Below, piece after piece: positions 1 to 15,691 of a stretch of DNA of 16,188 nt. Within the stretch, counting starts at the first letter, position 1; every line of letters starts with the position of its first letter. This stretch comes from a virus. Lineage: Duplodnaviria > Heunggongvirae > Uroviricota > Caudoviricetes. The stretch lies in the IMG/VR virus record IMGVR_UViG_3300021963_000032; one strand, written 5' to 3'. The position numbers were made by a program, and so were the translations under genes. A model generated the notes under the pieces. The model saw only the letters and a list, made by a program, of their open reading frames with translations. It ran no database searches and was not told the origin of the DNA.

Positions 1-225
1 GAGGAAGCTATTATAGGCCTAGACGCTTCTCAAGAGGTAGTCAGAGTAGTGTACGACATTGACGCTATTATTTCAATCCTAATGGAGCGAGATGAGATGA
101 CAGAGGAAGATGCACTGGAGCATTTCGGCTACAACATTCAAGGAGCCTACGTAGGCGAAGGAACACCAATCTACGTTTATGGCGGCGGACACGAAAGAGT
201 ATTAGAATTAATAAGCAATTTATAA
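1..225 (+). CDS. 5'-truncated hypothetical phage protein (74 aa visible)
   Basis: Frame 1 is open from base 1 to TAA at 223-225 and reads EEAIIGLDASQEVVRVVYDIDAIISILMERDEMTEEDALEHFGYNIQGAYVGEGTPIYV. It resembles from memory a common aquatic-phage family (AIIG...VVYD...EEA.E.F.FN..GAYVGE.TPI). It is not in the ORF track because the start lies upstream. Confidence 0.8.
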   Translation, partial: EEAIIGLDASQEVVRVVYDIDAIISILMERDEMTEEDALEHFGYNIQGAYVGEGTPIYVYGGGHERVLELISNL

Positions 226-228
226 GTT

Positions 229-465
229 ATGGAACAATACAAATCACTCTACGAGTACCTAGGAAAAGCAGCAGGTGCTGAACTAGGTAAGAAGGTAGCA
301 GCTGCTGCTTCAGCACAGAAAATTAAACTAACTACACAAGAGGTTAGTAACCCCAAGTATACTGGAACTGTACTAATGTATCCAGTTAACTTCTTAGATG
401 AATACTTCCACCCAGAAGTACAACCAACCTTAGGAGATATTCAAGACGACGAATTACCATTTTAA
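229..465 (+). CDS. Hypothetical protein with an SSB-like acidic C-terminal tip (DDELPF)
   Basis: 78-aa ORF tightly packed between its neighbours, ending IQDDELPF. Confidence 0.8.
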   Translation: MEQYKSLYEYLGKAAGAELGKKVAAAASAQKIKLTTQEVSNPKYTGTVLMYPVNFLDEYFHPEVQPTLGDIQDDELPF

Positions 466-467
466 CT

Positions 468-1241
468 ATGAACAAGAGAATAGAAGATTATAACAAAGTC
501 CTACCAATCATTGAACTATATCGATGTGTGCAATCTGAAGGAAGCCGATTTGGCAGACCTACAGTTGCAGTACGCACAACCGGATGCACGCATAGATGTT
601 TCTTTGGAGAAGGAGGCTGGTGCGATAGTTGGTATACATCGATCCACCCAGAGAAAGGAACATTTACATTCCAGGATATTATTAACATCTACGATGAGAA
701 TCCACACATTAAAGAAATGATGTTGACGGGAGGATCACCAACAATGCACCCAGCATTGGTAAACGAACTAACACACTTCGCTAATGAAAGAGGAATCCTC
801 ATCACAATCGAAACTGAAGGTAGCCATTTCGTACCTACTGACTTTCCTATTGGCCTTATATCTCTCAGTCCAAAGTTTGGTAATTCTGTACCCGTACTTG
901 GTGCTGTTACGCCTCAAGGAGCGATTGTGGATCAAAAAATGATTGATCAACACAATAAGTTTAGAATGAGGCTTGCTACAATGAGTGAGATGATTAACTT
1001 CCATGCAGATTATCATTTCAAACCAGTATGGGATGGAACAGAGAAGAACTTAGAAGAGATCGAAGAACTTCGAGTATTACTTGGTATTCCAAAAGAAAAG
1101 ACGTATATTATGCCAGCAGGCGATACACGAGAGGAGCTAATTAAAATGTATCCACTAGTGTTTGATATGTGTGCTGAGAGAGGTTATAACATGACGGGGC
1201 GAGATCACATTATCGCTTTCGATACAAAAAGAGGAGTATAA
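468..1241 (+). CDS. queE: 7-carboxy-7-deazaguanine synthase (radical SAM, QueE)
   Basis: N-terminal IIELYRCVQSEGSRFGRPTVAVRTTGC matches the QueE F.SIQGEG...G.P..F.R..GC pattern. It also has a Cys triad CTHRCFFGEGGWCDS, LTGGSP and IETEGS, and is co-located with folE and a QueD-like gene. Confidence 0.9.
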   Translation: MNKRIEDYNKVLPIIELYRCVQSEGSRFGRPTVAVRTTGCTHRCFFGEGGWCDSWYTSIHPEKGTFTFQDIINIYDENPHIKEMMLTGGSPTMHPALVNELTHFANERGILITIETEGSHFVPTDFPIGLISLSPKFGNSVPVLGAVTPQGAIVDQKMIDQHNKFRMRLATMSEMINFHADYHFKPVWDGTEKNLEEIEELRVLLGIPKEKTYIMPAGDTREELIKMYPLVFDMCAERGYNMTGRDHIIAFDTKRGV

Positions 1242-1408
1242 TGCACGAACTGTTACACTTTATAGGAATATGTCCTGATAGTTTCACTCACACTAGCTTG
1301 ATTGAAGTTGTAGTGACAAACTATCAAACACTAAATGATTTAATTAATTTAAACTTAAAAAGCTATGTTGCTAAATTCACATCAAATAGAGGAGCATCTA
1401 CAAACTAA
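1241..1408 (+). CDS. Small hypothetical protein (55 aa, MHELLHFIGICPDSFTH...), missed by the ORF track
   Basis: ATG overlaps the queE stop (TAATG at 1239-1243) and the frame is open to TAA at 1406-1408. It fills an otherwise empty 120-nt gap and overlaps the start of the next gene. Confidence 0.6.
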   Translation: MHELLHFIGICPDSFTHTSLIEVVVTNYQTLNDLINLNLKSYVAKFTSNRGASTN

Positions 1409-1847
1409 TGGTTTGGGAAGCAAAGCTCAGGTAGGTTATGATTTGACCTTAAAATCAGTAAAGATGGTTATGGGTGGTGCAGTTACTCAAGACAAGACTA
1501 TCGTAGAAGATTACACAGAAGTAACTCCATTCCAAAATGCAAATGGTAAGTTTATGTTCAAACTTTCACCAGGAGTTTATTCGCTGACATTCGAGCAAGG
1601 TTGTAAGCTACCCAATAACGTAACTGCATTCATTCGTCACCGTTCAAGCGTACTACGATGCGGTGCAGAGATCACTTCGGGAGTTTATGATCCAGGATTC
1701 GAGGTGGATGAGATGGGTGGTGTAATGTTTGCACACAGAGTGCTTGTTATTGAAAAAGGAGCTAGAGTAGCTCAGATTATCATGATGGAGAATACTCCAG
1801 CCGATATGTACGATGGTCAATGGCAGGGTAGTAAAGACTTGAAGTAA
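1365..1847 (+). CDS. dut: Trimeric dUTPase / dCTP deaminase-fold protein (archaeal-type dUTPase-like)
   Basis: Motifs GYDLTL, RSSVLRCG, GVYDPGF, GARVAQ and C-terminal YDGQWQG. The Dcd catalytic Glu (the TLE motif after DPG) is not evident, which favours a dUTPase over a deaminase. Confidence 0.75.
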   Translation: MLLNSHQIEEHLQTNGLGSKAQVGYDLTLKSVKMVMGGAVTQDKTIVEDYTEVTPFQNANGKFMFKLSPGVYSLTFEQGCKLPNNVTAFIRHRSSVLRCGAEITSGVYDPGFEVDEMGGVMFAHRVLVIEKGARVAQIIMMENTPADMYDGQWQGSKDLK

Positions 1848-2188
1848 TGAAGAAGTTTATAGAAGTAAGAGTAGATGTAGAAGGATTACATCACTGGCCG
1901 GATTGCAACTTGCCACACGTAGAGTATCTAAAGCACCTACACAGACATACATTCCAGATTAGCTGTAGAGCTGAGGTGAAGCATGGTGATCGTGATATCG
2001 AGTTTATCGATTTCAAACACAAATTGAAAAAGTATATTGCAAGCACTTGGTACGATCCAACTTACGGCTGTTGTAACTTTGGTGCAATGTCATGTGAAAT
2101 GATTGCAGAAGACTTACTAAATATGTTTGGACTTTGTCTATGCTCGGTGTCGGAAGATGGAGAATTTTTTGGTATAGTTGAGATATGA
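1847..2188 (+). CDS. dpdL: QueD-like T-fold protein with LxxxHRHxF motif (DpdL-like; putative CDG decarboxylase or atypical QueD)
   Basis: LKHLHRHTF replaces the QueD CxxxHGH motif. It also carries IEFIDFK and SCEMIAE (QueD: T.E.IA) and terminal VSEDGE (QueD: V.Et), and lies between queE and folE. Confidence 0.65.
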   Translation: MKKFIEVRVDVEGLHHWPDCNLPHVEYLKHLHRHTFQISCRAEVKHGDRDIEFIDFKHKLKKYIASTWYDPTYGCCNFGAMSCEMIAEDLLNMFGLCLCSVSEDGEFFGIVEI

Positions 2189-2628
2189 AGATAACTTATT
2201 TATGTGGACGCATCTGCAGTGGTAAGAGTACTTACAAACCTGACACTAGAAGATTAATGGTATCCGATATTGTTCGTAATGTTGTTAGAAGTAATGACAG
2301 AGAGCGATTGCAAAACTCAATGCACCTAGAGAATGACATCTTACACGGCTTGGCAATGTGCATCGATTACGATATGGAGATGGGTGTGCAAGAGTTAATC
2401 ATCGATGGTATTCGACAACCGTCAATCTTAGAAAGACTATCAGCAGTTTATCCAGGAGAGATAGTATGGCTAGAGGTTTCACTCGAGGAACGCAAAAGAC
2501 GTTACGAAGCTAGAGGAGCTGAGAAAGATACAGAACCATTTGAAGTAGCAGATAATAAGCCAATAGAGTTGGAATGTCAGAAAATTTATAGTATATTCAG
2601 TAAACAATTAAAAGTTATAAACAATTAA
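2185..2628 (+). CDS. P-loop nucleoside/nucleotide monophosphate kinase-like protein
   Basis: Walker [10 protein letters not shown], followed by IIDGIR and a lid-like [10 protein letters not shown]. This pattern is typical of the adenylate/dephospho-CoA/dNMP kinase-like fold. It overlaps the upstream gene by ATGA. Confidence 0.7.
2569..2599 (+). promoter_or_regulatory. Putative Bacteroidota-type promoter upstream of folE
   Basis: TTG (2569-2571), a 20-nt spacer and TATATTCA (2592-2599). The geometry matches other copies in the window. Confidence 0.45.
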
Positions 2629-2630
2629 AT

Positions 2631-3278
2631 ATGGAGTTAATTACAAAAGCAAATGGAAACATTCCTCGTTCAGAAGAGGAAAAAAAGCAGATGATCGAAA
2701 AGGCTGCTGAGTACTACGGAGGATTCTTAACAGCATTAGGTTTTGATTGGAAAGCTGATCCGCATAGCGATCGTACTCCACACCGTGTAGCTAAAGCTTG
2801 GGTAAATGATTTGATCGCTGGATCTATCTCACCAGAGCCTGAAGTAACAGCATTCCCTAATGACGAAGGTTATACGGGTCTTATCTGTCAGACACGCATT
2901 CCAGTAATGAGTATGTGTGCACACCACAACTTAACTTTCTCAGGAGTAGCTCACGTAGCTTACATTCCAGGAAAGGATAAGGGTGACTTGGTGATTGGAT
3001 TGAGTAAGTTGAATCGTATTGTAGATTTCTACTCTCGTCGTCCAAACATTCAAGAATCTTTAACTAAGCAAATTCACGACCACATTGAGAAGTTGTGTGT
3101 AGGTAATAGAGGAGTTGCAGTAGTAATCGAATCACAACACAATTGTGTTAGATGTCGTGGAATTAAACAAGACAGTGTAATGAAGACTTCACAGATGTCA
3201 GGATATTTCTGGACCAATGAAATCGGTACACGTCAAGAATTTTTTAACCTAATTGATCAAAGTCGTTATGGAGTTTAA
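2631..3278 (+). CDS. folE: GTP cyclohydrolase I
   Basis: [52 protein letters not shown] and HNCVRCRG, which include the Zn ligands and conserved FolE motifs. Confidence 0.95.
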
Positions 3279-3621
3279 TAGCAGTAGCACCAGTACTGGT
3301 ACATCATACGTTAACGATAAGTTACTGTACAATGGAATAAATGTAACACCAGGAAATAGCTGGATTACAAGTGGAACAACAATCACGGGAGGATTAACCT
3401 TAAACAACAATACAACAAGTATGAATCAACAAGTAAAAGTAGCAGTGTTTCAAGTAGAGCGAAACAAGCACAATGAGATCAAGTCGTCAACATTTATTGA
3501 TGAGTTTTGGATCGAAAAGAAACCAGGCATCTCAATCGACTTTGCAGTAGCTAAAAAGCTGAATGGCGAGTATGAAGCAGATGAGATTGTAATCAAAGAA
3601 ATCTACACAGTTACTTTGTAA
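3268..3621 (+). CDS. Hypothetical protein with S/T/N/G-rich N-terminus
   Basis: The track starts this ORF at TTG 3253. The in-frame ATG at 3268 ([11 protein letters not shown]...) overlapping the folE end is more likely. The stop at 3621 is 1 nt before the next start. Confidence 0.7.
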
Positions 3622-3622
3622 T

Positions 3623-4408
3623 ATGGATTTCTACGTTATATCACCAGTTAGCAACTTGGAGCCAATGAAGCTGGGAGATCGAATCTTTGCATTGGCTCAC
3701 TTATGGGTACAGTTTCCTGAGTATCGAGAGTTTATCAAAGCTCGTAAGCAAGAAGGCTGGTTTGTAACATTAGACAACTCAGCAGCAGAACGAGCATTAG
3801 TTACTGAAGATATTCTAATCAACATCTGCCATGAGTTAATGCCCAATGAGGTAATCGCACCAGACGTGTTGTTTGACAAAGACGCAACAATTGCAAACGC
3901 AAAGTCTTTCAGAGATCGTATGGAGAGTGAAGGCTTACTTGGCAAAATCGATATCTTTTTCTGTCCACAAGGTAAAACAAAAAAAGATTGGCTAGAAGCA
4001 TATACGTTTGGAATGTTTGAAGAGTGGGTTGATGTAATCGGATTCTCTAAGATTGCAATTCCAAATGCATGGTTAGAAGATTATAAAGACGATCAGGGAA
4101 TCAAAGAAGCACGATGGATGGCTTATGATTACTTGAAGGCAGAAGGTGCTTTGGTTAAACCAATCCACTGTCTAGGTCAAGGAGATCCAAGCGAGTTCAG
4201 CTACTATGGCCACCCAATGATGCGAAGCACAGATTCAGTGTATCCAGTATGGGCAGCTATCAATGGTCAGGACTTTAGAAAAGATCATGAGACTCGAACA
4301 CCAACACCACACAAACTTCTTGAAACATATGACATGAAGGATGTGAATATGGAGCTAGTCAAAAAGAACATTCAGTACTTGAGACTCAGCTGCATGGATT
4401 ACGCATAA
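3623..4408 (+). CDS. dpdA: TGT-fold (TIM barrel) guanine transglycosylase-like protein, DpdA-like (possibly DpdA3 type)
   Basis: The motifs appear in TGT order: TLDNSA (cf. DSGG), APDV, CPQG (cf. VQGG), IGFS (cf. IGG), IHCLG (cf. H.LG) and STDS (cf. nucleophile Asp). It is the last gene of the deazaguanine cluster. Confidence 0.65.
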   Translation: MDFYVISPVSNLEPMKLGDRIFALAHLWVQFPEYREFIKARKQEGWFVTLDNSAAERALVTEDILINICHELMPNEVIAPDVLFDKDATIANAKSFRDRMESEGLLGKIDIFFCPQGKTKKDWLEAYTFGMFEEWVDVIGFSKIAIPNAWLEDYKDDQGIKEARWMAYDYLKAEGALVKPIHCLGQGDPSEFSYYGHPMMRSTDSVYPVWAAINGQDFRKDHETRTPTPHKLLETYDMKDVNMELVKKNIQYLRLSCMDYA

Positions 4409-4430
4409 CACCTAACAACTAAACCAAAAG

Positions 4431-4461
4431 AACCAACTCGTAAAAAAGTTGGTTTTTTTTT
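4431..4461 (+). terminator. Rho-independent terminator closing the deazaguanine cluster
   Basis: Stem AACCAACT (4431-4438) / AGTTGGTT (4447-4454) with an 8-nt loop, followed by a T-run to 4461. Confidence 0.75.
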
Positions 4462-4506
4462 GCTCAACTGTTGCATATATGAAATATGTGCCTGACCTTT
4501 AGGTAT
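4461..4506 (+). promoter_or_regulatory. Promoter cassette copy 1
   Basis: TGCTCAACTGTTGCATA-N16-GACCTTTAGGTAT. TTG (4471-4473) is 20 nt from GACCTTTA (4494-4501). It is near-identical to 5046-5091. Confidence 0.7.
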
Positions 4507-4753
4507 GAAAGAGAGAGAGATAAAAGATCAGATTAGTGAAGTGTTCAATCAAGTAAGCTTCCGTAAGTTTGCCCATGCATTTCGAAAAAGCATTGCACCA
4601 TGGTTCTCACGTGAGAGTAACCTCAAGTCAAACGGTGGTCGTGTTGGTCCTAACTACACTTTTGAGGAACATGCATCGTATGTAATCGGTGATGGATCTT
4701 ATAGTGTTACCGAAGAAGAGTTCAACAATTTTATGAAAATCATTAAAAAATAA
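4505..4753 (+). CDS. Hypothetical protein (82 aa)
   Basis: ORF directly after promoter cassette 1. The start is uncertain because the ATG lies within the cassette's GGTATG. Confidence 0.7.
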   Translation: MKEREIKDQISEVFNQVSFRKFAHAFRKSIAPWFSRESNLKSNGGRVGPNYTFEEHASYVIGDGSYSVTEEEFNNFMKIIKK

Positions 4754-4758
4754 GAGAT

Positions 4759-5040
4759 ATGAGTTACCAAATTATCAACGGAGAGTACGTTAAGATGAGA
4801 CAAGAAAGTGAGATGCCACAAAACCCAACGGAGCAATCAATCGAGAATGCTTTAGTAGAGCTGGGAGTGGATTGTGAAGACTTAGAGTTTACTAGTGCAT
4901 TTGGAAGTAGTAAAAGATATATCCGATACAGATACTGGAAAAGTTTACCTATATCGTTTGAAGAGATAATGGAACTAGGTCTTGAGGAGGAAGCTGACTA
5001 CGATGACGACTGTGGTTATAAGTACGTTTATTTTATATAA
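4759..5040 (+). CDS. Hypothetical acidic protein (93 aa)
   Basis: ORF with an AAGAGAT leader before ATG, co-oriented and tightly packed. Confidence 0.75.
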   Translation: MSYQIINGEYVKMRQESEMPQNPTEQSIENALVELGVDCEDLEFTSAFGSSKRYIRYRYWKSLPISFEEIMELGLEEEADYDDDCGYKYVYFI

Positions 5041-5045
5041 AGTTA

Positions 5046-5091
5046 TGCACAACTGTTGCATAAACGAAATTAAGTGACGACCTTTAGGTAT
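5046..5091 (+). promoter_or_regulatory. Promoter cassette copy 2
   Basis: TGCACAACTGTTGCATA-N16-GACCTTTAGGTAT. TTG (5056-5058) is 20 nt from GACCTTTA (5079-5086). Confidence 0.7.
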
Positions 5092-5103
5092 AATTAAAAA
5101 GAG

Positions 5104-5123
5104 AGATATGAATAAAGTAACAA
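5104..5123 (+). repeat. 20-nt exact direct repeat, copy 1 (AGATATGAATAAAGTAACAA)
   Basis: Identical to 5642-5661 and spans the start codon of the ORF at 5108. Confidence 0.9.
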
Positions 5124-5434
5124 ACAAAACAATCGACATTAACGATTTCGAAACGAAAATGGCTTTGAAAGCTATGACATCGGAAGAATTAAGAGCTATC
5201 AACAGTTATGTTGTTGGAATCTTGAAAACTAGAAAAGCTTCGAAGCTTGCTGAGGTTAAACAAGAACTAAGAGAAGGAGCTCCAGTAACAGTGAATCACC
5301 CTCAACTATCCTTTAGAAAGAACCTAGTACTGACTAAGATCAACAAGACTCGTGGAGTTGTTCAAGTGCAAGGCGCTACCGGTGGTTTTGATCAAGGATG
5401 GAATGTTCCACTACAATTAATCCAAATGCGATAA
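5108..5434 (+). CDS. Hypothetical protein, N-terminal helix plus possible SH3/KOW-like beta-barrel
   Basis: The C-terminal half (GAPVTVNHP...VLTKINKTRGVVQV...WNVPLQLI) looks like a small beta-barrel. The fold is inferred. Confidence 0.7.
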   Translation: MNKVTNKTIDINDFETKMALKAMTSEELRAINSYVVGILKTRKASKLAEVKQELREGAPVTVNHPQLSFRKNLVLTKINKTRGVVQVQGATGGFDQGWNVPLQLIQMR

Positions 5435-5437
5435 GAT

Positions 5438-5635
5438 ATGAAAATAGAACAATTCGAAGTAGAAGAAGGCAAGCTCAAAGCTGTCAAAGACATTAGTACG
5501 TTTGGTGGATCAAATATGTGGTTCTTGTATGTGCAAAAGGTAACCAATAACTGGGAACAGATCCAGTGGATGGGAGTGTACAGCATGCAGCAACTATTCC
5601 ACACACAGTTACCAACTTACCCAGACAACGTTTAA
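5438..5635 (+). CDS. Hypothetical protein (65 aa)
   Basis: ORF with an AAGAT leader before ATG, in a packed co-oriented block. Confidence 0.65.
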   Translation: MKIEQFEVEEGKLKAVKDISTFGGSNMWFLYVQKVTNNWEQIQWMGVYSMQQLFHTQLPTYPDNV

Positions 5636-5641
5636 TATAAA

Positions 5642-5661
5642 AGATATGAATAAAGTAACAA
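5642..5661 (+). repeat. 20-nt exact direct repeat, copy 2
   Basis: Identical to 5104-5123 and spans the start codon of the ORF at 5646. Confidence 0.9.
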
Positions 5662-5894
5662 TCAATGTGAAAGATGAACACGGAAAAATCATCAAAACCT
5701 ACGACATGGAGCTCGTAGAGTCATCAACAGTGCAAGAGTTCTATGAGGAAGCTCGTAGAGTCTGGTCTGAATACTATGTAGAATGTGTAATCGGATCGTG
5801 CACTTTATCGAGAGACTTTACGTATGAGCAAGAGATGATTATGCTCGCAGAAGAGGAGTCTTATAAACAATTCCTAACACTTGCAGGAGTATGA
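5646..5894 (+). CDS. Hypothetical protein (82 aa)
   Basis: ORF beginning MNKVT, the same first five residues as the ORF at 5108. Confidence 0.7.
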   Translation: MNKVTINVKDEHGKIIKTYDMELVESSTVQEFYEEARRVWSEYYVECVIGSCTLSRDFTYEQEMIMLAEEESYKQFLTLAGV

Positions 5895-5995
5895 TAATAC
5901 TAAAACTAATCTTTGCAGCTGCATTAGGTGCACTCTGCATCACTGGAATGATATTATCTGTAGCAATAATTAACGATTCACTTAAAAAGAAATAG
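5891..5995 (+). CDS. Small single-pass membrane protein (34 aa), missed by the ORF track
   Basis: MIILKLIFAAALGALCITGMILSVAIINDSLKKK. It has an ATGA overlap with the upstream stop, TAG at 5993-5995 and the next ATG at 5998, with a hydrophobic stretch followed by a basic tail. Confidence 0.65.
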   Translation: MIILKLIFAAALGALCITGMILSVAIINDSLKKK

Positions 5996-5997
5996 AC

Positions 5998-6276
5998 ATG
6001 GCATACGTAGAAGTAGATATAGACTTAGATGATTTTTATGATGATTTAGGTGAGTGGGAAAAGGAAGAGCTTGTAGAGAAGCTTATCAAGGATGGTTATG
6101 AGATGAAAGATCCGAACAGAGAGTATGAGGAAGATGTTGATGTGGATAGTGTGGAGTTTAATGGAAACCCTCTCGACTATGCATGGAAGGCAATGATCAA
6201 GAAGATTGACCACAGTCGCTATCAACTGACACCAGAGCAGGAAGAAATGTTGTTCAACTTAGCAAAGAGCCTATGA
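5998..6276 (+). CDS. Hypothetical acidic protein (92 aa)
   Basis: ORF beginning MAYVEVDIDLDDF, very Asp/Glu rich and tightly packed. Confidence 0.75.
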   Translation: MAYVEVDIDLDDFYDDLGEWEKEELVEKLIKDGYEMKDPNREYEEDVDVDSVEFNGNPLDYAWKAMIKKIDHSRYQLTPEQEEMLFNLAKSL

Positions 6277-6719
6277 GTACGACATTTGCAATTAGGACTC
6301 CTGACGGAAAGCTAAAACCTATAGCTTATAGAGTGAACGGTGGTAAGATACATTTCACAAACGACATTGCTGAGTTTATGTTAGAGGAGAGTTTACCGGT
6401 AGAGGCAACTGACAACTCACCACAAGGTATCTTCACAATTGGTGACATAAGGGAGTGCATCCGTAGACAAGAGGAAGAAGAAGAGTATGAGGAGCAGTCG
6501 TGGATTAAAGATCCTACCAAGATAGAAAGGCGCAAACGTAACTCAATCTTTGTACCGATGGATGATGCATGGCATAAAGAGCATGACTTTGTTGAAGTAA
6601 CGGAGTGGTCGAATGGAGAAGGGTGGGACATTACAATCTCTGACGAAAAACAGATATCACTACACCATACAGAGTTTGCAGTTATCAAAGAATTAATAGC
6701 TTTATTGGAAAAAGATTAG
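6273..6719 (+). CDS. Hypothetical protein, apparently two modules joined by a poly-Glu linker
   Basis: An N-terminal module, then QEEEEEYEE, then a C-terminal module containing DFVEVTEWSNGEGWDITI. Confidence 0.75.
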   Translation: MSTTFAIRTPDGKLKPIAYRVNGGKIHFTNDIAEFMLEESLPVEATDNSPQGIFTIGDIRECIRRQEEEEEYEEQSWIKDPTKIERRKRNSIFVPMDDAWHKEHDFVEVTEWSNGEGWDITISDEKQISLHHTEFAVIKELIALLEKD

Positions 6720-6727
6720 TATATTTA
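6697..6727 (+). promoter_or_regulatory. Putative promoter for polA
   Basis: TAG (6697-6699), a 20-nt spacer and TATATTTA (6720-6727). The ATG follows at 6732. Confidence 0.5.
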
Positions 6728-6731
6728 GCAT

Positions 6732-8972
6732 ATGAAAAGTTACAAGATAATAACCGACGAGGCTGGTGTCGTAGAATTAGCCAACTATATCAAGAACGGT
6801 AACATCATCGCGTATGATACTGAGACGACTAGTGTCAATCCTAGAACTGGTCAGATCATTGGATTCTCAGTTTCAGCTAATATCGGTGAAGGTTATTACT
6901 TTCCCACACGTAAATGGGATGCAGATGCTCAGCAACTAGTTGATCTTACGTTAGGTGGAAAGAGTTGTGATGACATTGCTGTACAGCTTATCAAAATGTT
7001 GTTAGATAAAAAGCTTGTCATGCACAATGCATCTTTCGACGTTCGGTACACGAAGAACTTCTACGGAGTTGATCTTCGTGATGCTCTCTATTGTGATACC
7101 ATGTTACTACGACACACCCTCAAAGAGGATGGTCCATTTGGTTTGAAGGATATTGCAATTGAGATTCAGAATGAGTTAGGTTTAGATGCTGAGAAGGATG
7201 CCAATGAAGAGCAGATTCGATTGAAAGAATCTATTCAAAACAACGGTGGAAGCATCACTAAAACTAACTACGAAATCTTCAAAGCTGATATGAACCTATT
7301 GGGAGAGTATGCAGCAGCCGATACCGATTTAACGCTTCGAGTAATGACTCACTACTTGCCAATCCTAAAGGAGCAGGAGTTGTGGGATTTCTTCTTTGAA
7401 GAGGAGGTAATGCCTCTTTACAAGACCGTTACTATTCAGATGGAAGAAACGGGAACTCAGCTTAACATTGAGTTGATCGAGAAGACTAAGAAGGATATCA
7501 ATGCTGATATCGCTAGACTCGAGGGTGAGATTATCTCAGACTTAATGAAGATACCACAAGTTCAGCAGTGGGTTGTTAAACGAGCGTTAACTAATCACCC
7601 ACCCAAGAAAAGAGGTCACTATGGTAAACGAGTAGAAGCTAAGTTGGATCAACTAATTGATCGTGATGGTGGAGTAGCATTCCTAAAGAGTGGTGATCCG
7701 AATGACCTTAACGAGCAAGATAAGATTGCAATCAGCTTAGACCTATTAAAGGAGAAGGATGGTACATTTGTAAACATCAGCAGTAAGCAGCAGCTATCCG
7801 AAATGTGCTTTAAGTATATGAAGATCAAACCTATTAGTCAGACTCGTAAGGGTACAGATCAGTTTGATGACGGAATGATTGATGCGTTAAGTAAGGAGCA
7901 CGGTTGGGCTTTTAAGCTTCGTGACTACAACAAACTAAATAAGATTCAATCAGCCTATGTTGATCGATTCCTAGACAATAGTGAGAACGGAAGATACTAT
8001 TGGTACTTCAAACAACACGGAACTACCTCAGGTCGATTTAGTTCTGACTCACAACAACTACCTCGTGTACTTGAGGAAGGAGAGCAAAGTGAATTAGTAT
8101 TAAGTTACAATAACATTATTCGTAGCTTCTTACAAGCAGAGGAGGGACGTAGGTTTATTATCTGTGACCAATCATCTCTTGAGCCACGAGTGTTCGCATC
8201 AGTAAGTAATGACCCTAACCTAATTAACGTATTTCTTGACAATGAGGATTTATATTGTAGAGTGGCTATTCAAGCGTTTAAGCTTAAAGGCATGTCGGCG
8301 AAGAAGAGCGATGATAACTACGTCAAGAACATTCGTCCAGAACTTAGACAGAGAGCAAAAAGTATTGCGCTTGCTATTCCTTATGGAGCAGGTGCGTGGC
8401 AGATCGGTCAATCGCTCAACATTCCAATCGGAGAAGCACAAAAAATGATCGATGGTTACCTAGAAGGTTTCCCTGAGTTAGCTAAGTGGATGAGTGATAG
8501 CCACCTGAGAGCACAGACTTTTGGTTATGTGAAGAACAAGACTGGACGTATTCGTCACTTAGACCGAGTAAAGTTAATCTATGAGAAGTTTGAGAATAGT
8601 CTTATTGAACCAGGACCATTTGCTCAAATGAAGCGTATGGCTAAGACTCCGGAGCAGACAGCACAACTAATGAAGCTTCGTATGGAATACAAGAACGGTC
8701 TTAACAACTGTAAGAACTTTCAGATCCAATCACTAGCAGCTTCAATCATGAACAGATCTGCTATTCAGATTCACAAGCGATTCAAAGAGGAAGGACTAGA
8801 TGCTTGTATCATGCTACAGATTCACGATGAGTTTGTTGTCAATGCAAGTGTAGAGTGTATGGATAGAGCTTGTGCAATTACTAAAGAGTGTATGGAGAAC
8901 ACAGTATCAATTGCAACTGGATTGATTGCAGAGCCAAACATCGCAAAAGATTTCGGAGAAGGACACGTTTAA
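6732..8972 (+). CDS. polA: Family A DNA polymerase with 3'-5' exonuclease and no 5'-3' exonuclease domain
   Basis: ExoI AYDTETT, ExoII HNASFD, ExoIII YAAAD, then QHGTTSGRFSS, motif A CDQSSLEPR, motif B RQRAKSIALAIPYG and motif C QIHDE. Confidence 0.95.
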   Translation: MKSYKIITDEAGVVELANYIKNGNIIAYDTETTSVNPRTGQIIGFSVSANIGEGYYFPTRKWDADAQQLVDLTLGGKSCDDIAVQLIKMLLDKKLVMHNASFDVRYTKNFYGVDLRDALYCDTMLLRHTLKEDGPFGLKDIAIEIQNELGLDAEKDANEEQIRLKESIQNNGGSITKTNYEIFKADMNLLGEYAAADTDLTLRVMTHYLPILKEQELWDFFFEEEVMPLYKTVTIQMEETGTQLNIELIEKTKKDINADIARLEGEIISDLMKIPQVQQWVVKRALTNHPPKKRGHYGKRVEAKLDQLIDRDGGVAFLKSGDPNDLNEQDKIAISLDLLKEKDGTFVNISSKQQLSEMCFKYMKIKPISQTRKGTDQFDDGMIDALSKEHGWAFKLRDYNKLNKIQSAYVDRFLDNSENGRYYWYFKQHGTTSGRFSSDSQQLPRVLEEGEQSELVLSYNNIIRSFLQAEEGRRFIICDQSSLEPRVFASVSNDPNLINVFLDNEDLYCRVAIQAFKLKGMSAKKSDDNYVKNIRPELRQRAKSIALAIPYGAGAWQIGQSLNIPIGEAQKMIDGYLEGFPELAKWMSDSHLRAQTFGYVKNKTGRIRHLDRVKLIYEKFENSLIEPGPFAQMKRMAKTPEQTAQLMKLRMEYKNGLNNCKNFQIQSLAASIMNRSAIQIHKRFKEEGLDACIMLQIHDEFVVNASVECMDRACAITKECMENTVSIATGLIAEPNIAKDFGEGHV

Positions 8973-9056: not shown

Positions 9057-9467
9057 ATGAGCACAGAAGTCACATTTGACGTCCTATTTCGGGACCTATT
9101 TAACGCGCATTCGCGTTTCGGATCTATTTCAGAGATCAAAATTCCACACCCAGTAGATATCTACGAACACTCAGACGGTCTTGTTTTTGAGATCGCATGC
9201 ACCGGTCTTACTAAAGACGAGGTTGATATTGATGTTGAGTTGGATGTTCTAAAGGTAAGTTATAACAAACCACAACACCATGATGGCATTGAAGAAGCTC
9301 GCACATATCAGTGTAGAGGAATTGCACGCCGTTCGTTTAATCTAGCGTATAAGATATCACCAAAATACACTCTATCAGAGAGTGCAGCTGTAATGGAGGA
9401 TGGTCTATTGATTATTGAAATTCCATTTGCTGAAGAAGCTAAACCAAAAAAGTTACAAATTAAGTAA
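9057..9467 (+). CDS. hsp20: Small heat shock protein (Hsp20/IbpA family)
   Basis: Alpha-crystallin domain pattern PVDIYE...EIACTGLTKDEVDIDVE...RGIARRSF...A.MEDGLL.IEIP with a C-terminal KKLQIK (I-X-I like). A strong SD AAGGAGGT lies at 9042-9049. Confidence 0.92.
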   Translation: MSTEVTFDVLFRDLFNAHSRFGSISEIKIPHPVDIYEHSDGLVFEIACTGLTKDEVDIDVELDVLKVSYNKPQHHDGIEEARTYQCRGIARRSFNLAYKISPKYTLSESAAVMEDGLLIIEIPFAEEAKPKKLQIK

Positions 9468-9476
9468 CTAAAACGG

Positions 9477-9506
9477 TTGTTCTTGGGTCTTTTTTCCGTA
9501 TATTAA
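9477..9506 (+). promoter_or_regulatory. Putative promoter for groES-groEL
   Basis: TTG (9477-9479), a 19-nt spacer and TATATTAA (9499-9506), located intergenically. Confidence 0.5.
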
Positions 9507-9528
9507 ATTTTATAAACAGTTATACAAC

Positions 9529-9822
9529 ATGAGTAAATTTCAACCAGTTAGCGACAAGCTAGTGTGTCTTCCACTCGAGCAAGACGAAATGAGCGCAGGA
9601 GGGATCATCCTTCCAGAGCTAAGTGACCAGAAAACCCTAAAGGCTAGGGTAGTAGTTGCGGGGAAAGGATTTTGGGCAGCTCCAGGTTTGTTCATTGAGA
9701 CAACCCTTACAGAAGGAGATATAATCCTTTATCAGCGATTCGCTGCACAGACATTTGAGTACGATGACTTGGAGTACCATATCATCCAAGAGCGTGATGT
9801 ATTAACAAAAATCAACGACTAA
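9529..9822 (+). CDS. groES: Co-chaperonin GroES (Cpn10)
   Basis: FQPVSDKL, mobile loop EMSAGGIILPE, VVVAGKG and GDIILY...Y.IIQERDVL. It lies directly upstream of groEL. Confidence 0.93.
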   Translation: MSKFQPVSDKLVCLPLEQDEMSAGGIILPELSDQKTLKARVVVAGKGFWAAPGLFIETTLTEGDIILYQRFAAQTFEYDDLEYHIIQERDVLTKIND

Positions 9823-9824
9823 GA

Positions 9825-11465
9825 ATGGACAATAAAGTAAAGATTATCAGTTATGATACTGAAGCACGAGACAAAGTGCGAAATGGTGTGAACAAGTTAG
9901 CTAAGGCTGTTTCATCTACATTAGGACCAAAGGGTCGTAACGTAATGATTGAAAAAGAGAATGGCTCTCCAGTGATTACAAAAGATGGTGTAACAGTTGC
10001 AAAAGAGTTCTTCTTGAAAGACCCAGTAGAAAACATGGGTGCTCAGGCAATCAAAGAAGTATCAGTTCGTGCTGCTAAGATGGCTGGAGATGGTACTACA
10101 ACTGCAACGGTTCTAGCTTCGTATATGTACAACGAGGGAATCAAAGCTATCAACGCAGGAGTTAATCCAATTGAATTAAAAAGAGGAATGGATTTGGCTA
10201 CAAACCAAATCATTGAAAACCTACGTGACTTGAGTCGTGATGTAGTTACTAACGAAGAGATTCGTCAAGTGGCAACCATCTCAGCTAACAACGACACTTC
10301 AGTTGGAAACATCATTGCAGAGGCAATGGAGAGTGTTGGTAAGGATGGAGTAATCCAAGTAGAGGAAAGTAAAACTTCTGAGACTACCTTAGAGGTGGTA
10401 GAAGGTATGCAGATCGAACGTGGATTCATTTCACCATACTTTGCAACTAATCAGGCTTCGATGACTTCTCAACTAGAGAATCCAATGATCTTGATCTGTG
10501 ACAAGAAGATCAGCAGCATTAAAGAGATCCTACCATTACTAGAAAACTGTAGCAAGCAAGGTAAACCTTTGTTAATTGTAGCAGACGATGTAGATGGTGA
10601 AGCTTTAGCTACAATGGTAGTAAACAAAGCTCGTGGTATCTTAAACGTATGTGCTATCAAGTCACCAGGATTTGGAGACCGTAAGATTCATATGCTTGAA
10701 GATATTGCTATATTGACTGGTGGTCAAGTGGTTTCAGCAACTAAGGGAATGAAGCTAGAGAAGCTTACTCTTGATATGCTAGGAACAGCTCGTATGGTAA
10801 TTGTAAGCCAAAGTGAAACTGTTATCGTAGATGGTGCAGGAGATACTGACGCAATTGCTGGACGTGTTGAGGACATTAAAACTCAGTACGAAAAAGCAGA
10901 AAGTGATTACGAGAAGCAAGGAATCAAGGAGCGTCTAAGTAAGTTGATGGGAGGTGTTGCAGTATTGAACATCGGAGCAGCAACTGAGATTGAGCTTAAA
11001 GAAAAGAAAGATCGAGTTGACGATGCACTACACGCTACGCGAGCAGCAGTAGAGGAAGGTATCGTTGCAGGAGGTGGTGTTGCTTTAATGCAAGCTATCA
11101 AAGAATTAAAAGTTACAACAGAGAATGACGATCAAATTTTAGGTGTAGGAATCATCACAAGAGCGTGTTCCGCACCTTTCAATGCGATTGTTAATAATGC
11201 AGGTAAAAGTCCTGATGCAATTGCTCAACGTATCACTCTTTTCAAAGAGGGAGATGATTCGAGCTTTGTAGGTTACGATGCACGCCACGATGAGGTATGT
11301 GATATGTTTAAGGCTGGAATCGTGGATCCAACCAAAGTATCTCGTACAGCATTGGAGCTTGCCAATTCTGTAGCTGGAACGCTACTCACCACGGAGTGTG
11401 TTATTAGTTTTGATCCCGAACAAGAAGATAAAGAAAAGAATTCTTCAGTTCCAGACTACTACTAG
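9825..11465 (+). CDS. groEL: Chaperonin GroEL (Cpn60)
   Basis: [40 protein letters not shown] and [22 protein letters not shown]. The C-terminus lacks GGM repeats. Confidence 0.98.
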
Positions 11466-12667: not shown

Positions 12668-13137
12668 CAGAGTTTATAGATATTTCAATGGGGAGAATCA
12701 GTACCCTCGATCCGAGAGTAATTGAATCTGCTACCAGAGCATTTCAGAAATGTCTTTCAAAACATATTCCAATTTACATTATTTGGGGTAGTCGCACAGT
12801 CGAGCAACAAGAATTATTATATAGGTCCGGACGCTCAATGCACGGACCTATTATTACATCTCGCAGGCCTGGTTACAGTGCACATAACTTTAGATTGGGA
12901 TTAGACTTCTGCCTACTAGATGGAAAGAAGTTACTTACGTTTGATGAATGCCTACCTAACGAAGTGTTGCATGAAAAGTGGTTTAGAGCAGTTCGTTATT
13001 TTGAAGAAGAAGGATGGGAGTCAGGATGGAGATGGCCAAGCTTTGAGCCAGGTCATTTACAAAACCTAATGGGACATACCATAGGAGAGTTACACATAAG
13101 TTACGCAAGACATGAGAATAGGGATAACGGGAACTAA
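12664..13137 (+). CDS. M15-family Zn peptidase (L-Ala-D-Glu peptidase / endolysin-like)
   Basis: GSRTVEQQELLYRSGR, an SxH-x6-D motif (SAHNFRLGLD) and GWRWPSFEPGH (ExxH). Confidence 0.82.
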   Translation: MTEFIDISMGRISTLDPRVIESATRAFQKCLSKHIPIYIIWGSRTVEQQELLYRSGRSMHGPIITSRRPGYSAHNFRLGLDFCLLDGKKLLTFDECLPNEVLHEKWFRAVRYFEEEGWESGWRWPSFEPGHLQNLMGHTIGELHISYARHENRDNGN

Positions 13138-13510
13138 GACGTACGAGAATAGGATAAAAATTAAGAACTTTATGTTCCAACTTAAAAACCACGCAGACGA
13201 TCTTGTGATTATTGGCTTAGGAGAAAGGGATGGAGCTGACAAGTACGTAAAACGATATGCTTTAGAGTTTGGATATTCTTACCGAGAAGCGAATCTACCC
13301 CATACCCCACAGAACCTATACAGTTTACTTTCGGAGCAACATTACAATAAGCCGTATGCTCCTAAAAATTTTTTCACAAGAAATAAGATCTATACGCAAT
13401 TTGTTGACAAACTCGTTTTGTTTGACGATTCCGATGTGAGGGATATAAAGGTTTCAAATTTGGTTAGAGAGTTTGCAAAAGCCAAAAAGAGAGTTGTTAT
13501 TGTAAATTAA
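13112..13510 (+). CDS. SLOG-superfamily (YspA/DUF2493-like) protein
   Basis: IGITGTKTY, GERDGADKYVKRYA and FFTRNKIYTQFVDKLVLF match the SLOG G.R...GAD...RN...D pattern. Confidence 0.7.
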   Translation: MRIGITGTKTYENRIKIKNFMFQLKNHADDLVIIGLGERDGADKYVKRYALEFGYSYREANLPHTPQNLYSLLSEQHYNKPYAPKNFFTRNKIYTQFVDKLVLFDDSDVRDIKVSNLVREFAKAKKRVVIVN

Positions 13511-14206: not shown

Positions 14207-15691
14207 ATGAAGAAAGGTTATATCCCAAAGGATCAAAGAAAGACAATTCTATTTTTAGCAGATGATCTAAGACTTCCGTCTGGAATCGGTACAATGACAA
14301 GAGAGCTTGTTGTTGGTAATGCACACGCATATAATTTTGTGGAGATTGGAGCAGCAATGCAACACCCGGATGCAGGTCAGATACTAGACATTAGTGCTGA
14401 CGTAAATGTGGAGGCAGGGATTGACGATGCAAGTGTGATTATCTACCCATACAATGGTTACGGTGATGCGGATATTGTTCGTACATTAATCGATAAGCAT
14501 AAAGTAGATGCAATCGTGCACTTTACAGATCCTAGATATTGGATTTGGTTATACAGAATGTCTGCAGAAATTAGACAGAATATTCCTATATTCTACTACC
14601 ACATTTGGGACGACCTTCCAGCTCCACACTATAACAGACCATACTACGAGTCGTGCGACTTATTGATGGGAATCAGCAAGCAATCTGTTAACATTAGTAA
14701 GTTAGTGTTAGGAAAGGATAACTTCATTGATTTAGACTCAAACCCACCAGCTGAGATGGTCAGCAAGAATCTACCCAAAACTACATACGTACCTCACGGA
14801 GTCAACGCAAAGTATTTCTTCCCACTAGATAGAAATGATGAGCAAGTTCAAAAGATGCGTAATGAAATTTTCCAAGGAGCTAATCCAGACTATGTACTTT
14901 TGTACAATAATAGAAACATTCGTCGTAAGATGACCTCAGACGTTATCCTAGCTTTCAAGATGTTCCACCAGGATTTAGTTGAAAAGGGATATAAGGATGA
15001 TGTTCGTTTGGTATTAAAGACACAACCAGTAGATGAGAATGGTACAGACCTTTACGCTGTTATTGATGCAATCTGTCCGGAAATAGCTGACAAGATAATA
15101 TTCCATACTGCTAGATTGACTCCATATGAGATGGGTATACTATACAACTGTTGCGATACGGTAATCAACATTGCTTCCAACGAAGGTTGGGGATTAAGTA
15201 GTACTGAAGCGTTAATGACTGGACGTACGTTGATTAATAACGTGACTGGTGGTCTTCAAGATCAATGTCGCTTTGAGGATGAGGATGGTAACTGGATTGA
15301 GTTTAATGAAGACTTCGCTAGTAACCATGGAGGTAAATACACTAAGTGTGGTATTTGGGTGAAACCAGTATTCCCTGCAGCTATTAACTTGCAAGGTTCA
15401 ATTCCAACTCCTTACATCTTCGACGACCGATGTGATGTACGTGACGTACAAAAAGCAATTACATATTGGTTTGAGATGTCACAAGCAGATCGTGAGAAAT
15501 GTGGAGTGGCTGGGTACCAATGGGCAACCGGACCAGAAGCAAACATGACTGCAGAAAATATGTGTATGCGTTTTAGACAAGCAGTCGATACTACTATGGA
15601 AAGTTGGGTAGCACCAAGTAGATTCACATTGTACGATTCACAAGTACAGCTACAAAAATTCAATAATAAAAAATCAGGTATTTCTATCTAA
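14207..15691 (+). CDS. GT-B (GT4-like) glycosyltransferase
   Basis: ILFLADDLRLPSGIG, YVPHGVN, NRNIRRK and the GT4 acceptor motif ASNEGWGLSSTEALMTG (EGFG...E). Confidence 0.9.
   Translation: MKKGYIPKDQRKTILFLADDLRLPSGIGTMTRELVVGNAHAYNFVEIGAAMQHPDAGQILDISADVNVEAGIDDASVIIYPYNGYGDADIVRTLIDKHKVDAIVHFTDPRYWIWLYRMSAEIRQNIPIFYYHIWDDLPAPHYNRPYYESCDLLMGISKQSVNISKLVLGKDNFIDLDSNPPAEMVSKNLPKTTYVPHGVNAKYFFPLDRNDEQVQKMRNEIFQGANPDYVLLYNNRNIRRKMTSDVILAFKMFHQDLVEKGYKDDVRLVLKTQPVDENGTDLYAVIDAICPEIADKIIFHTARLTPYEMGILYNCCDTVINIASNEGWGLSSTEALMTGRTLINNVTGGLQDQCRFEDEDGNWIEFNEDFASNHGGKYTKCGIWVKPVFPAAINLQGSIPTPYIFDDRCDVRDVQKAITYWFEMSQADREKCGVAGYQWATGPEANMTAENMCMRFRQAVDTTMESWVAPSRFTLYDSQVQLQKFNNKKSGISI

Follow-up and report, generated by a model that had tools for sequence, protein, structure and literature searches.

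The 16,188-nt stretch of Caudoviricetes DNA analysed here (IMG/VR record IMGVR_UViG_3300021963_000032; termed the window) carries, at positions 468-4408, a block of eight genes that very probably represents a DNA-modification module of the type known from Cellulophaga phage phiST, in which a small P-loop kinase would be an integral component coupled to the protein DpdL, and a nucleoside triphosphate (NTP) pyrophosphatase a regular neighbour. In phiST DNA, deoxyguanosine (dG) is fully replaced by 2'-deoxy-7-deazaguanine (dDG); the phage encodes FolE, QueD, QueE, DpdL and DpdA3 (Cui, Hutinet et al., NAR 2023, PMC10516641). Phages phi19:2 and phi13:1 share its set of DpdL and DpdA3, and their DNA contains dDG, with no 7-carboxy-7-deazaguanine nucleoside (dCDG) detected (PMC10516641). 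That study left open how phages with DpdA3 attain 100% replacement and why DpdL and DpdA3 failed in reconstitution. The cluster is not of a new kind: judged by homology, it is a further example of a published system, every core component having a phiST counterpart, so that a preliminary description of the window overstated its novelty. The coupling of the kinase to DpdL, on the other hand, is new relative to PMC10516641, the only source found that describes DpdL and DpdA3 in this sense; there the phiST kinase gene, CGPG_00066, is said to be without homologues in other deazaguanine phages, and a kinase is never mentioned. The analysis establishes what the genes are, their homology to the experimentally characterised phiST system, the TGT fold, the lack of QueC and QueF in relatives, and the conservation and fusions of the kinase. 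Treated below as predictions are that the base is dDG, that DpdL acts as a decarboxylase, what the kinase phosphorylates, and whether insertion precedes or follows replication.

Read directly from the sequence and its open reading frames (ORFs), the block consists of tightly packed genes on the + strand, closed by a hairpin and a T-run (Table 1). TAATG joins queE to a 55-aa ORF and, likewise, the gene for a protein with the dUTPase/dCTP deaminase (DCD) fold to dpdL; ATGA joins dpdL to the kinase gene; and, apart from the longer overlap given in Table 1, the remaining junctions are gaps of 1-3 nt, with the ATG of a 117-aa ORF lying 11 nt inside the end of folE. In this respect the preliminary description, which had reported one tightly coupled block ending at a terminator, was accurate. 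The proteins resemble those of phiST at 63% identity for QueE, 50% for FolE, 40% for DpdA3, 35% for DpdL (CGPG_00067; E 1e-21) and 30% for the kinase. Both clusters lack QueC, both include an NTP pyrophosphatase, and in both the DNA polymerase gene is located downstream. They differ in gene order; in the pyrophosphatase, which in phiST is of the all-alpha MazG/dimeric dUTPase type and in the window of the beta-barrel dUTPase/DCD type; in two additional clade-specific small ORFs of the window; in three small genes, including a thioredoxin gene, that separate QueD from QueE in the window's closest relative; and in the genomic backbone, which is a 79-kb Cbastvirus type for phiST as against a roughly 160-kb immuto type for the window.

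The closest isolate is the cultured Chryseobacterium phage MA9V-3 (PV245944.1), whose cluster genes, with the exception of queE and folE, bear the annotation 'hypothetical protein'. Its proteins are 60% (FolE), 47% (DpdL), 44% (DpdA3), 39% (kinase) and 36% (DCD-fold pyrophosphatase) identical to those of the window, and it shares the order DpdL-kinase-DpdA3, with the kinase gene immediately 5' of DpdA3. It differs in that thyA and recA are interleaved with the cluster and in that its DpdL carries an N-terminal HNH/endonuclease VII-like domain. No DNA chemistry for MA9V-3 was found in the searchable literature.

By homology and modelling, the kinase has a nucleoside monophosphate (NMP) kinase fold. 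It matches AAA_18 at 31 bits (cut-off 29.4) and also AAA_33, and it contains the P-loop SGK[ST] together with the nearly invariant motifs VSDIV(K/R) and G(I/V)RQ. Its profile matches SSO1041 (3lw7, AdkA-like, AMP-bound) at E 8e-9, and comparison of a structural model (predicted local distance difference test, pLDDT, 89.3) places adenylate kinase 1, UMP-CMP kinase and archaeal UPF0200 proteins at the top ranks; polynucleotide kinase appears at rank 23, as a lower-ranked possibility for the substrate class. A tblastn search of 50,697 phage records finds the kinase family in only 6, each of them a phage with both DpdA3 and DpdL.

The association with DpdL is closest where the two proteins are fused. 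A single reading frame encodes DpdL together with the kinase in one of the related contigs (L017), and a search with this fusion finds DpdL-kinase proteins in 62 clusters at 90% identity, in which the order of the two domains is constant while identity to the query falls to 30%. An independent search with a DpdL profile finds such fusions in 42 of the 150 best representatives at 50% identity, and DpdA3 lies at most 3.6 kb away in each of the seven fusion loci that were fetched. Two further fusions are known from single examples, one of DpdL to a classical dUTPase (P0081, 273 aa; L028:9001-9822) and one of DpdL to a phosphoribosyltransferase (PRTase; P0334, 248 aa). Stand-alone PRTase genes occur within the clusters of Flavobacterium phage immuto (gp211), of L027, L028 and L035, and of Synechococcus phage BUCT-ZZ01; the window itself has none. 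In other DpdA3 lineages, moreover, a P-loop kinase stands beside DpdA3 in each and an NTP hydrolase in most, the kinases coming from different P-loop families and having no more than this neighbourhood in common. Thus the DpdA3 neighbours in immuto include a PRA-PH/MazG-like gene (gp208) and an AAA_28 kinase (gp203); DpdA3 of the Campylobacter phage type CP220 (gp056) is flanked by an HD + AAA_33 protein (gp055) and an AAA_28 kinase (gp057); and in Bacillus phage BSTP12 a weak P-loop protein is encoded directly upstream. (The CP220 gp055 protein may instead be an HD-Pnk end-healing enzyme.)

Several observations on these loci stand on their own. The arrangement ribonucleotide reductase (RNR)-[DpdL-kinase fusion]-DpdA3 occurs as a minimal module in L026:9001-11124, L036:10001-12133 and L037:3473-5142, followed by DUF4494 in two of the three; DUF4494 is also encoded in the immuto cluster (gp209). 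These contigs are of roughly 100 kb and carry SNF2, UvrD, NAD-ligase and BACON genes, and their backbone may be crAss-like. FolE, QueD and QueE do not occur in the fetched flanks of the three loci, which suggests that these minimal modules use CDG (7-carboxy-7-deazaguanine) made by the host. The L028 cluster has FolE2 (PF02649) in place of FolE and adjoins a polymerase that is a fusion of uracil-DNA glycosylase with PolA. In some close relatives, L009 (~7567-7629) and L011 (~6012-6161), QueE and the DCD-fold gene are separated by a small ORF that shows a sub-threshold match to the phosphoribosyl pyrophosphate loop of PF00156; in the window, this position is occupied by the 55-aa ORF only.

The 113-aa protein encoded 5' of the kinase is DpdL, on sequence evidence, and not QueD. 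The preliminary description had predicted a DpdL-like protein in the cluster, which this protein is, and had also listed a QueD-like gene as QueD; a single T-fold gene had been counted as both. Residues 28-36 (LKHLHRHTF) correspond to the DpdL signature LxxxHRHxF, which stands in place of the CxxxHGH of QueD (PMC10516641), and the catalytic Cys of QueD is replaced by Leu. Residues H15, L28, H32, R33, H34 and F36 are invariant among 29 DpdL homologues. A Pfam scan finds no PF01242 match for this protein, its one family match being weak (TIGR03112, E 0.006), and the DpdL profile has no match in the PDB. Because hhalign relates DpdL to the QueD of the window's relatives only weakly (probability 48%, over 36 C-terminal columns only), the T-fold assignment is taken from homology to phiST DpdL and from the HHpred result of PMC10516641, which is also the source of the proposal that DpdL is a CDG decarboxylase. 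An exhaustive profile search yields 3108 members of the family as representatives at 50% identity.

An in-frame N-terminal extension recurs on DpdL: it is present in MA9V-3 (L002:4647-5528), in L011:6998-8062 and in representatives P0271, P0305, P0307, P0311, P0322 and P0298. In MA9V-3 and the six representatives the extension is an endonuclease VII/HNH homing-endonuclease-like domain of ~190-250 aa (phrog_3322, phrog_1035); in L011 an HNH-like motif is recognised by eye, and the extension matches just phrog_5104, a family of unknown function. Such extensions may be mobile endonucleases that target dpdL or may be true fusions. That those of MA9V-3 and L011 are QueD-DpdL fusions was considered and rejected, given the endonuclease VII/HNH matches of the former and the HNH-like appearance of the latter.

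The last protein of the block, of 261 aa, is by homology and model a member of the DpdA3 subfamily with the fold of tRNA-guanine transglycosylases (TGTs), in line with the DpdA-like protein that had been predicted. In a tblastn search it aligns with phiST CGPG_00065 over 254 aa (E 6e-61), equally well in identity with the DpdA3 of phi13:1 and phi19:2 (40%), and at 26-29% with those of immuto and of CP220-type Campylobacter phages. An AlphaFold (AF2) model from 15 homologues (pLDDT 92.9) retrieves TGT first in Foldseek (E 4e-7) and gives VIA Z scores of ~17 that are alike for ArcTGT, bacterial TGT and the DNA preQ0 insertase DpdA (7ui4, Z 17.0), with 229-232 residues aligned to TGT/DpdA structures at 13-18% identity. 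Thus it shares the (beta/alpha)8 fold of bacterial DpdA and of TGTs, but differs from them in being ~100-300 residues shorter (TGT chains have 360-580 aa), in having neither a CxCxxC Zn site, nor the Zn subdomain, nor a C-terminal subdomain, and in its lack of PF01702: the Pfam scan gives neither this nor any other match, and searches of the PDB by sequence, whether single or profile, give chance matches only. D51 (LDN), D81 (APD) and D204 (TDS) are invariant among 15 homologues and were paired with TGT Asp102, Asp156 and Asp280 by motif order only. An argument against DNA binding from the acidic pI of DpdA3 proteins (4.7-6.6) was dropped as too weak.

A large protein database contains 539 DpdA3 homologues, the best 120 of which are all at least 70% identical to the query. 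In 13 IMG/VR loci DpdA3 is 72-90% identical to that of the window, and those loci that reach far enough upstream keep the order QueE-(55 aa)-DCD-DpdL-kinase-FolE-(117 aa)-DpdA3. Two loci from sample 3300008267 depart from the intact form: in L014:7096-10640 QueE lacks residues 82-138, DpdL ends after 59-76 aa and DpdA3 is in two pieces, and in L015:10001-10731 DpdA3 is split; these modules are either decaying or assembly errors. In Bacillus phage BSTP12 (MW354678.1; L030:5899-6687) a 262-aa DpdA3-like gene, situated inside a Gat-QueC/QueD/QueE/FolE cluster just 5' of DNA polymerase I, is labelled 'NadR trifunctional NAD biosynthesis/regulator protein', an annotation that is probably wrong; the idea that it encodes a DpdA3-kinase fusion was rejected, the product being a plain DpdA3-like protein.

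Precursor synthesis would be divided between the block and its upstream flank. QueE matches several NCBIfam QueE models, each below its cut-off, in addition to the PHROG match given in Table 1. The window contains no QueD. In the closest relative, a 66-kb contig from the Joint Genome Institute (JGI) whose DpdA3 is 92% identical to the window's, ORF lengths equal those of the window (78, 257, 55, 160, DpdL, 147, 215, ~122, 261 ... 746, 136, 97, 546), except that DpdL is called as 124 aa and the 117/122-aa ORF as 127 aa. Upstream of this shared string are QueD (PF01242, 159 aa), thioredoxin and an 86-aa gene, so that QueD lies three genes from QueE; and because the window's first ORF ends exactly at the end of the 86-aa gene, QueD would be placed ~0.3-0.8 kb before window base 1. 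The window's phage therefore probably has QueD just upstream, outside the window. A PF01242 QueD is found upstream of QueE in all five related IMG/VR contigs that were searched, two of them judged 96% and 98% complete, and none of the five has QueC, QueF or a PF01702 TGT. Nor do the window ORFs, tested against Pfam, PHROGs or NCBIfam (three short ones, at 4759-5040, 5438-5635 and 5646-5894, against PHROGs only), match QueC or QueF, which bears out the absence of both enzymes noted in the preliminary description. The QueC-less state is real in this lineage, yet the block is without a complete CDG pathway. As an aside, the QueD proteins of three relatives (L019:1495-1956, L020:1498-1965 and L021:1498-2025, all on the - strand) have CxxLHGY rather than CxxxHGH, so that the second motif His is Tyr, and score above the PF01242 cut-off despite this.

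The gene 5' of dpdL encodes, on sequence grounds, a member of the dUTPase/dCTP deaminase superfamily, for which a role as dNTP pyrophosphatase is predicted: it matches PF22769 at 48.9 bits (cut-off 27), PF00692 at 22.3 (cut-off 22) and NF002598 at E 2e-24, its best PDB match is 9w59, a 'probable dUTPase' (E 1.5e-11), and it is present in every related locus. The 55-aa and 117-aa ORFs are probably real genes under purifying selection. The former is 50-77% identical at the amino-acid level in L005, L006, L014 and L015 (dN/dS 0.21-0.42); the latter is kept in L005 and L006/L007, and as the 127-aa gene of the closest relative (dN/dS 0.17-0.26). The 55-aa ORF has no family match and no detectable relatives beyond the close clade; the 117-aa ORF has no Pfam or PHROG match and no detectable relatives outside the clade, and atlas search scores for it (<0.9) are uninformative. 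These two genes, the pyrophosphatase gene and the kinase gene had together been proposed as candidate uncharacterised components. The proposal fits the kinase, whose role is unexplained and which would be integral to the module, even though it has a match in CGPG_00066; it does not fit the pyrophosphatase, a functional analogue of CGPG_00068, and the two small ORFs occur only in phages closely related to that of the window.

In the proposed pathway FolE, QueD and QueE would convert GTP to CDG, DpdL would remove the carboxyl group, and DpdA3 would exchange guanine for the deazapurine, the pathway ending before preQ0, with neither QueC nor QueF. The preliminary description had left the base as CDG or 7-deazaguanine; since the DNA of phiST is fully dDG, the second of these is favoured and dCDG is less so. 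Because the kinase is tied to DpdL, and because a free purine base offers a kinase no substrate, the substrate or product of DpdL would be a nucleoside or nucleotide; in other words, DpdL would handle at least one intermediate that can be phosphorylated, and not solely the free base. The PRTase-DpdL and DpdL-dUTPase fusions point to a nucleotide-level DpdL step too. These fusions hint at, and do not prove, such a step as opposed to a purely post-replicative model.

From this it is a tentative but serious possibility that the complete replacement of G by dDG is made at least partly on free nucleotides before replication. A PRTase, in phages that have one, or else DpdA3, with a guanine nucleotide as its substrate, would form a deazaguanine nucleotide, which DpdL would then process; the DpdL-coupled NMP-type kinase would phosphorylate it, and the phage polymerase would incorporate it, so that DpdA3 would perhaps only load the base or tidy up afterwards. 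DNA polymerases accept 7-deaza-dGTP. Such a route, if true, would explain why dpdL and dpdA alone failed in Escherichia coli.

Somewhat less probable, though still to be reckoned with, is that the same dDG module acts purely after replication, as was proposed for phiST (PMC10516641): DpdL would act on free CDG, DpdA3 would swap every G, and the kinase and the dUTPase-fold enzyme would merely serve nucleotide supply (clearance of dUTP and phosphorylation of dNMPs for an AT-rich genome), being co-located as parts of a DNA-metabolism region. This accords with the DpdA3 model, which is as near the DNA-acting DpdA as it is to tRNA enzymes, and with several facts that also count against the reading preferred here. 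The near-complete relatives G001 and G002 have no dUTPase-family gene other than the DCD-fold gene, and thyA lies near the cluster in G001, MA9V-3 and immuto, with RNR and recA likewise neighbours, so that the DCD-fold enzyme may be a housekeeping dUTPase. Nor is a canonical thymidylate kinase found in other parts of the relatives' genomes, so that a general role for the kinase is conceivable in principle. A purely pre-replicative route that excludes dGTP would need a dGTP hydrolase, and, as no HD or MazG enzyme of this kind is recognisable in G001 and G002, it lacks an obvious candidate. To these must be added that dDG is predicted for the window's phage by homology only (35-44% identity); that QueD is placed by synteny only; that the absence of QueC covers the window and its relatives; and that the decarboxylase activity of DpdL is a proposal, co-expression of dpdL and dpdA in E. 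coli having yielded no dDG (PMC10516641). This last result also counts against the purely post-replicative model. Of a housekeeping kinase, moreover, one would expect neither in-frame fusion to DpdL in so many representatives, nor occurrence in minimal [DpdL-kinase]-DpdA3 pairs (L026, L036, L037), nor confinement, among the phage records searched, to those with DpdA3 and DpdL; and the PRTase and dUTPase fusions are hard to explain if DpdL acts only on a free base.

It is improbable that the inserted base is instead CDG itself (as dCDG) or another derivative, DpdL not being a decarboxylase but, for example, binding or modifying a pterin or purine together with the kinase. Pairs of a T-fold protein with a kinase are known in pterin metabolism, as in FolB-FolK fusions. 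DpdL activity is, as stated, a proposal, and Sulfolobus virus STSV2 (spelled SVST-2 in Table 1 of PMC10516641) naturally contains dCDG, but phiST, phi19:2 and phi13:1, with the same DpdL and DpdA3, have dDG without detectable dCDG, and the window protein has the invariant residues of the DpdL signature. Least likely is that the TGT-fold protein acts on tRNA in a queuosine- or archaeosine-type auxiliary modification module: its fold is equally close to tRNA-guanine transglycosylases, but it lacks the Zn subdomain, the C-terminal tRNA-binding parts and a PF01702 match, its experimentally studied homologues belong to phages with fully substituted DNA, and QueC and QueF, which preQ1 and queuosine require, are absent.

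The immuto and CP220 phages share the DpdA3 subfamily with the window, replace G fully (PMC10516641) and have a P-loop kinase and an NTP hydrolase next to DpdA3, and immuto has the same DpdA3...PolA-GroES-GroEL order. They differ in their end products and tailoring genes, immuto having QueF and DpdN, and CP220 a QueC-like enzyme that is proposed for dADG in the scheme of PMC10516641, and their kinases belong to AAA_28, another P-loop family. The hydroxymethylcytosine (hmC) system of T4 and the diaminopurine system of S-2L/phiVC8 are alike in logic only, combining full base replacement with a dNTP pyrophosphatase and a nucleotide kinase whose genes adjoin those of the base-making enzymes; neither homology nor membership is claimed, neither system has a transglycosylase, and conversely the window's relatives have no recognisable dGTP-specific hydrolase. 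In T4 the enzymes are a dCTPase, dCMP hydroxymethylase and dNMP kinase, and in S-2L/phiVC8 they are MazZ, DatZ and PurZ; both systems are pre-replicative.

Table 1. Features of the window in and around the deazaguanine block.
Feature	Position	Strand	Evidence or remark
Small conserved gene, 3' end	1..225	+	phrog_13182, E 1e-18; 86 aa in the closest relative, same end point
78-aa ORF directly 5' of queE	229..465	+	Homologues in the same place in L006/L007, L013 and L014
QueE, radical-SAM CDG synthase	468..1241	+	phrog_2076, E 9e-48
55-aa ORF, clade-specific	1241..1408	+	Last 44 nt shared with the next gene
dUTPase/DCD-fold protein, predicted dNTP pyrophosphatase, archaeal dUTPase type	1365..1847	+	PF22769, NF002598
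DpdL, 113 aa, QueD paralogue, proposed CDG decarboxylase	1847..2188	+	Homology to phiST DpdL, signature motif
Predicted NMP-kinase-like P-loop kinase	2185..2628	+	AAA_18, AAA_33; ATGA overlap with dpdL (translational coupling)
FolE, GTP cyclohydrolase I	2631..3278	+	PF01227, E 5e-44; phrog_2197, E 2e-56
117-aa ORF, clade-specific	3268..3621	+	122 aa if started at TTG 3253
DpdA3-subfamily guanine transglycosylase (predicted), 261 aa, minimal TGT barrel	3623..4408	+	Homology and model; phrog_20335, E 2e-54
Intrinsic terminator-like hairpin with nine T	4431..4463	+	Stem AACCAACT/AGTTGGTT; terminator scan lists the same hairpin on the - strand
Family A DNA polymerase	6732..8972	+	phrog_17, E 3e-96; would have to copy or use dDG

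The remainder of the window, which has ~39% GC and phage-like genes that all lie on one strand, encodes 3' of the block the family A DNA polymerase, Hsp20, GroES, GroEL, a PD-(D/E)XK exonuclease, an M15-type peptidase and a glycosyltransferase. The Hsp20, GroES and GroEL genes follow one another directly 3' of the polymerase (9057-11465), and immuto likewise has GroES and then GroEL after its polymerase; judged by this PolA-Hsp20-GroES-GroEL synteny, the window's phage is related to immuto. At the DNA level no isolate is close, a megablast search of window positions 1-8000 against the 50,697 phage records giving no match. The 78-aa ORF 5' of queE has no family match in Pfam or PHROGs. The glycosyltransferase (14207-15691, 494 aa; phrog_2170, E 8e-17, with a weak PF00534 match) is encoded ~10 kb 3' of DpdA3, and a 132-aa protein (13112-13510) shows a weak match to the YAcAr/SLOG family (PF10686, E 0.006; phrog_289). 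SLOG proteins are nucleotide binders. A PF10686 gene is also found near the deazaguanine cluster of L028.

The lineage to which the window belongs is abundant in metagenomes, several of them JGI freshwater samples. The interest of the case lies in the role of the kinase, which can be tested, rather than in the cluster as such: a protein dismissed in PMC10516641 as being without homologues is fused to DpdL in over a quarter of the best representatives of that family, and is thereby a concrete candidate for the component that was missing from the failed reconstitution with DpdL and DpdA3. Because DNA in which all G is 7-deaza-G resists many restriction enzymes, the pathway is relevant both to the arms races between phages and their hosts and to making modified DNA enzymatically.

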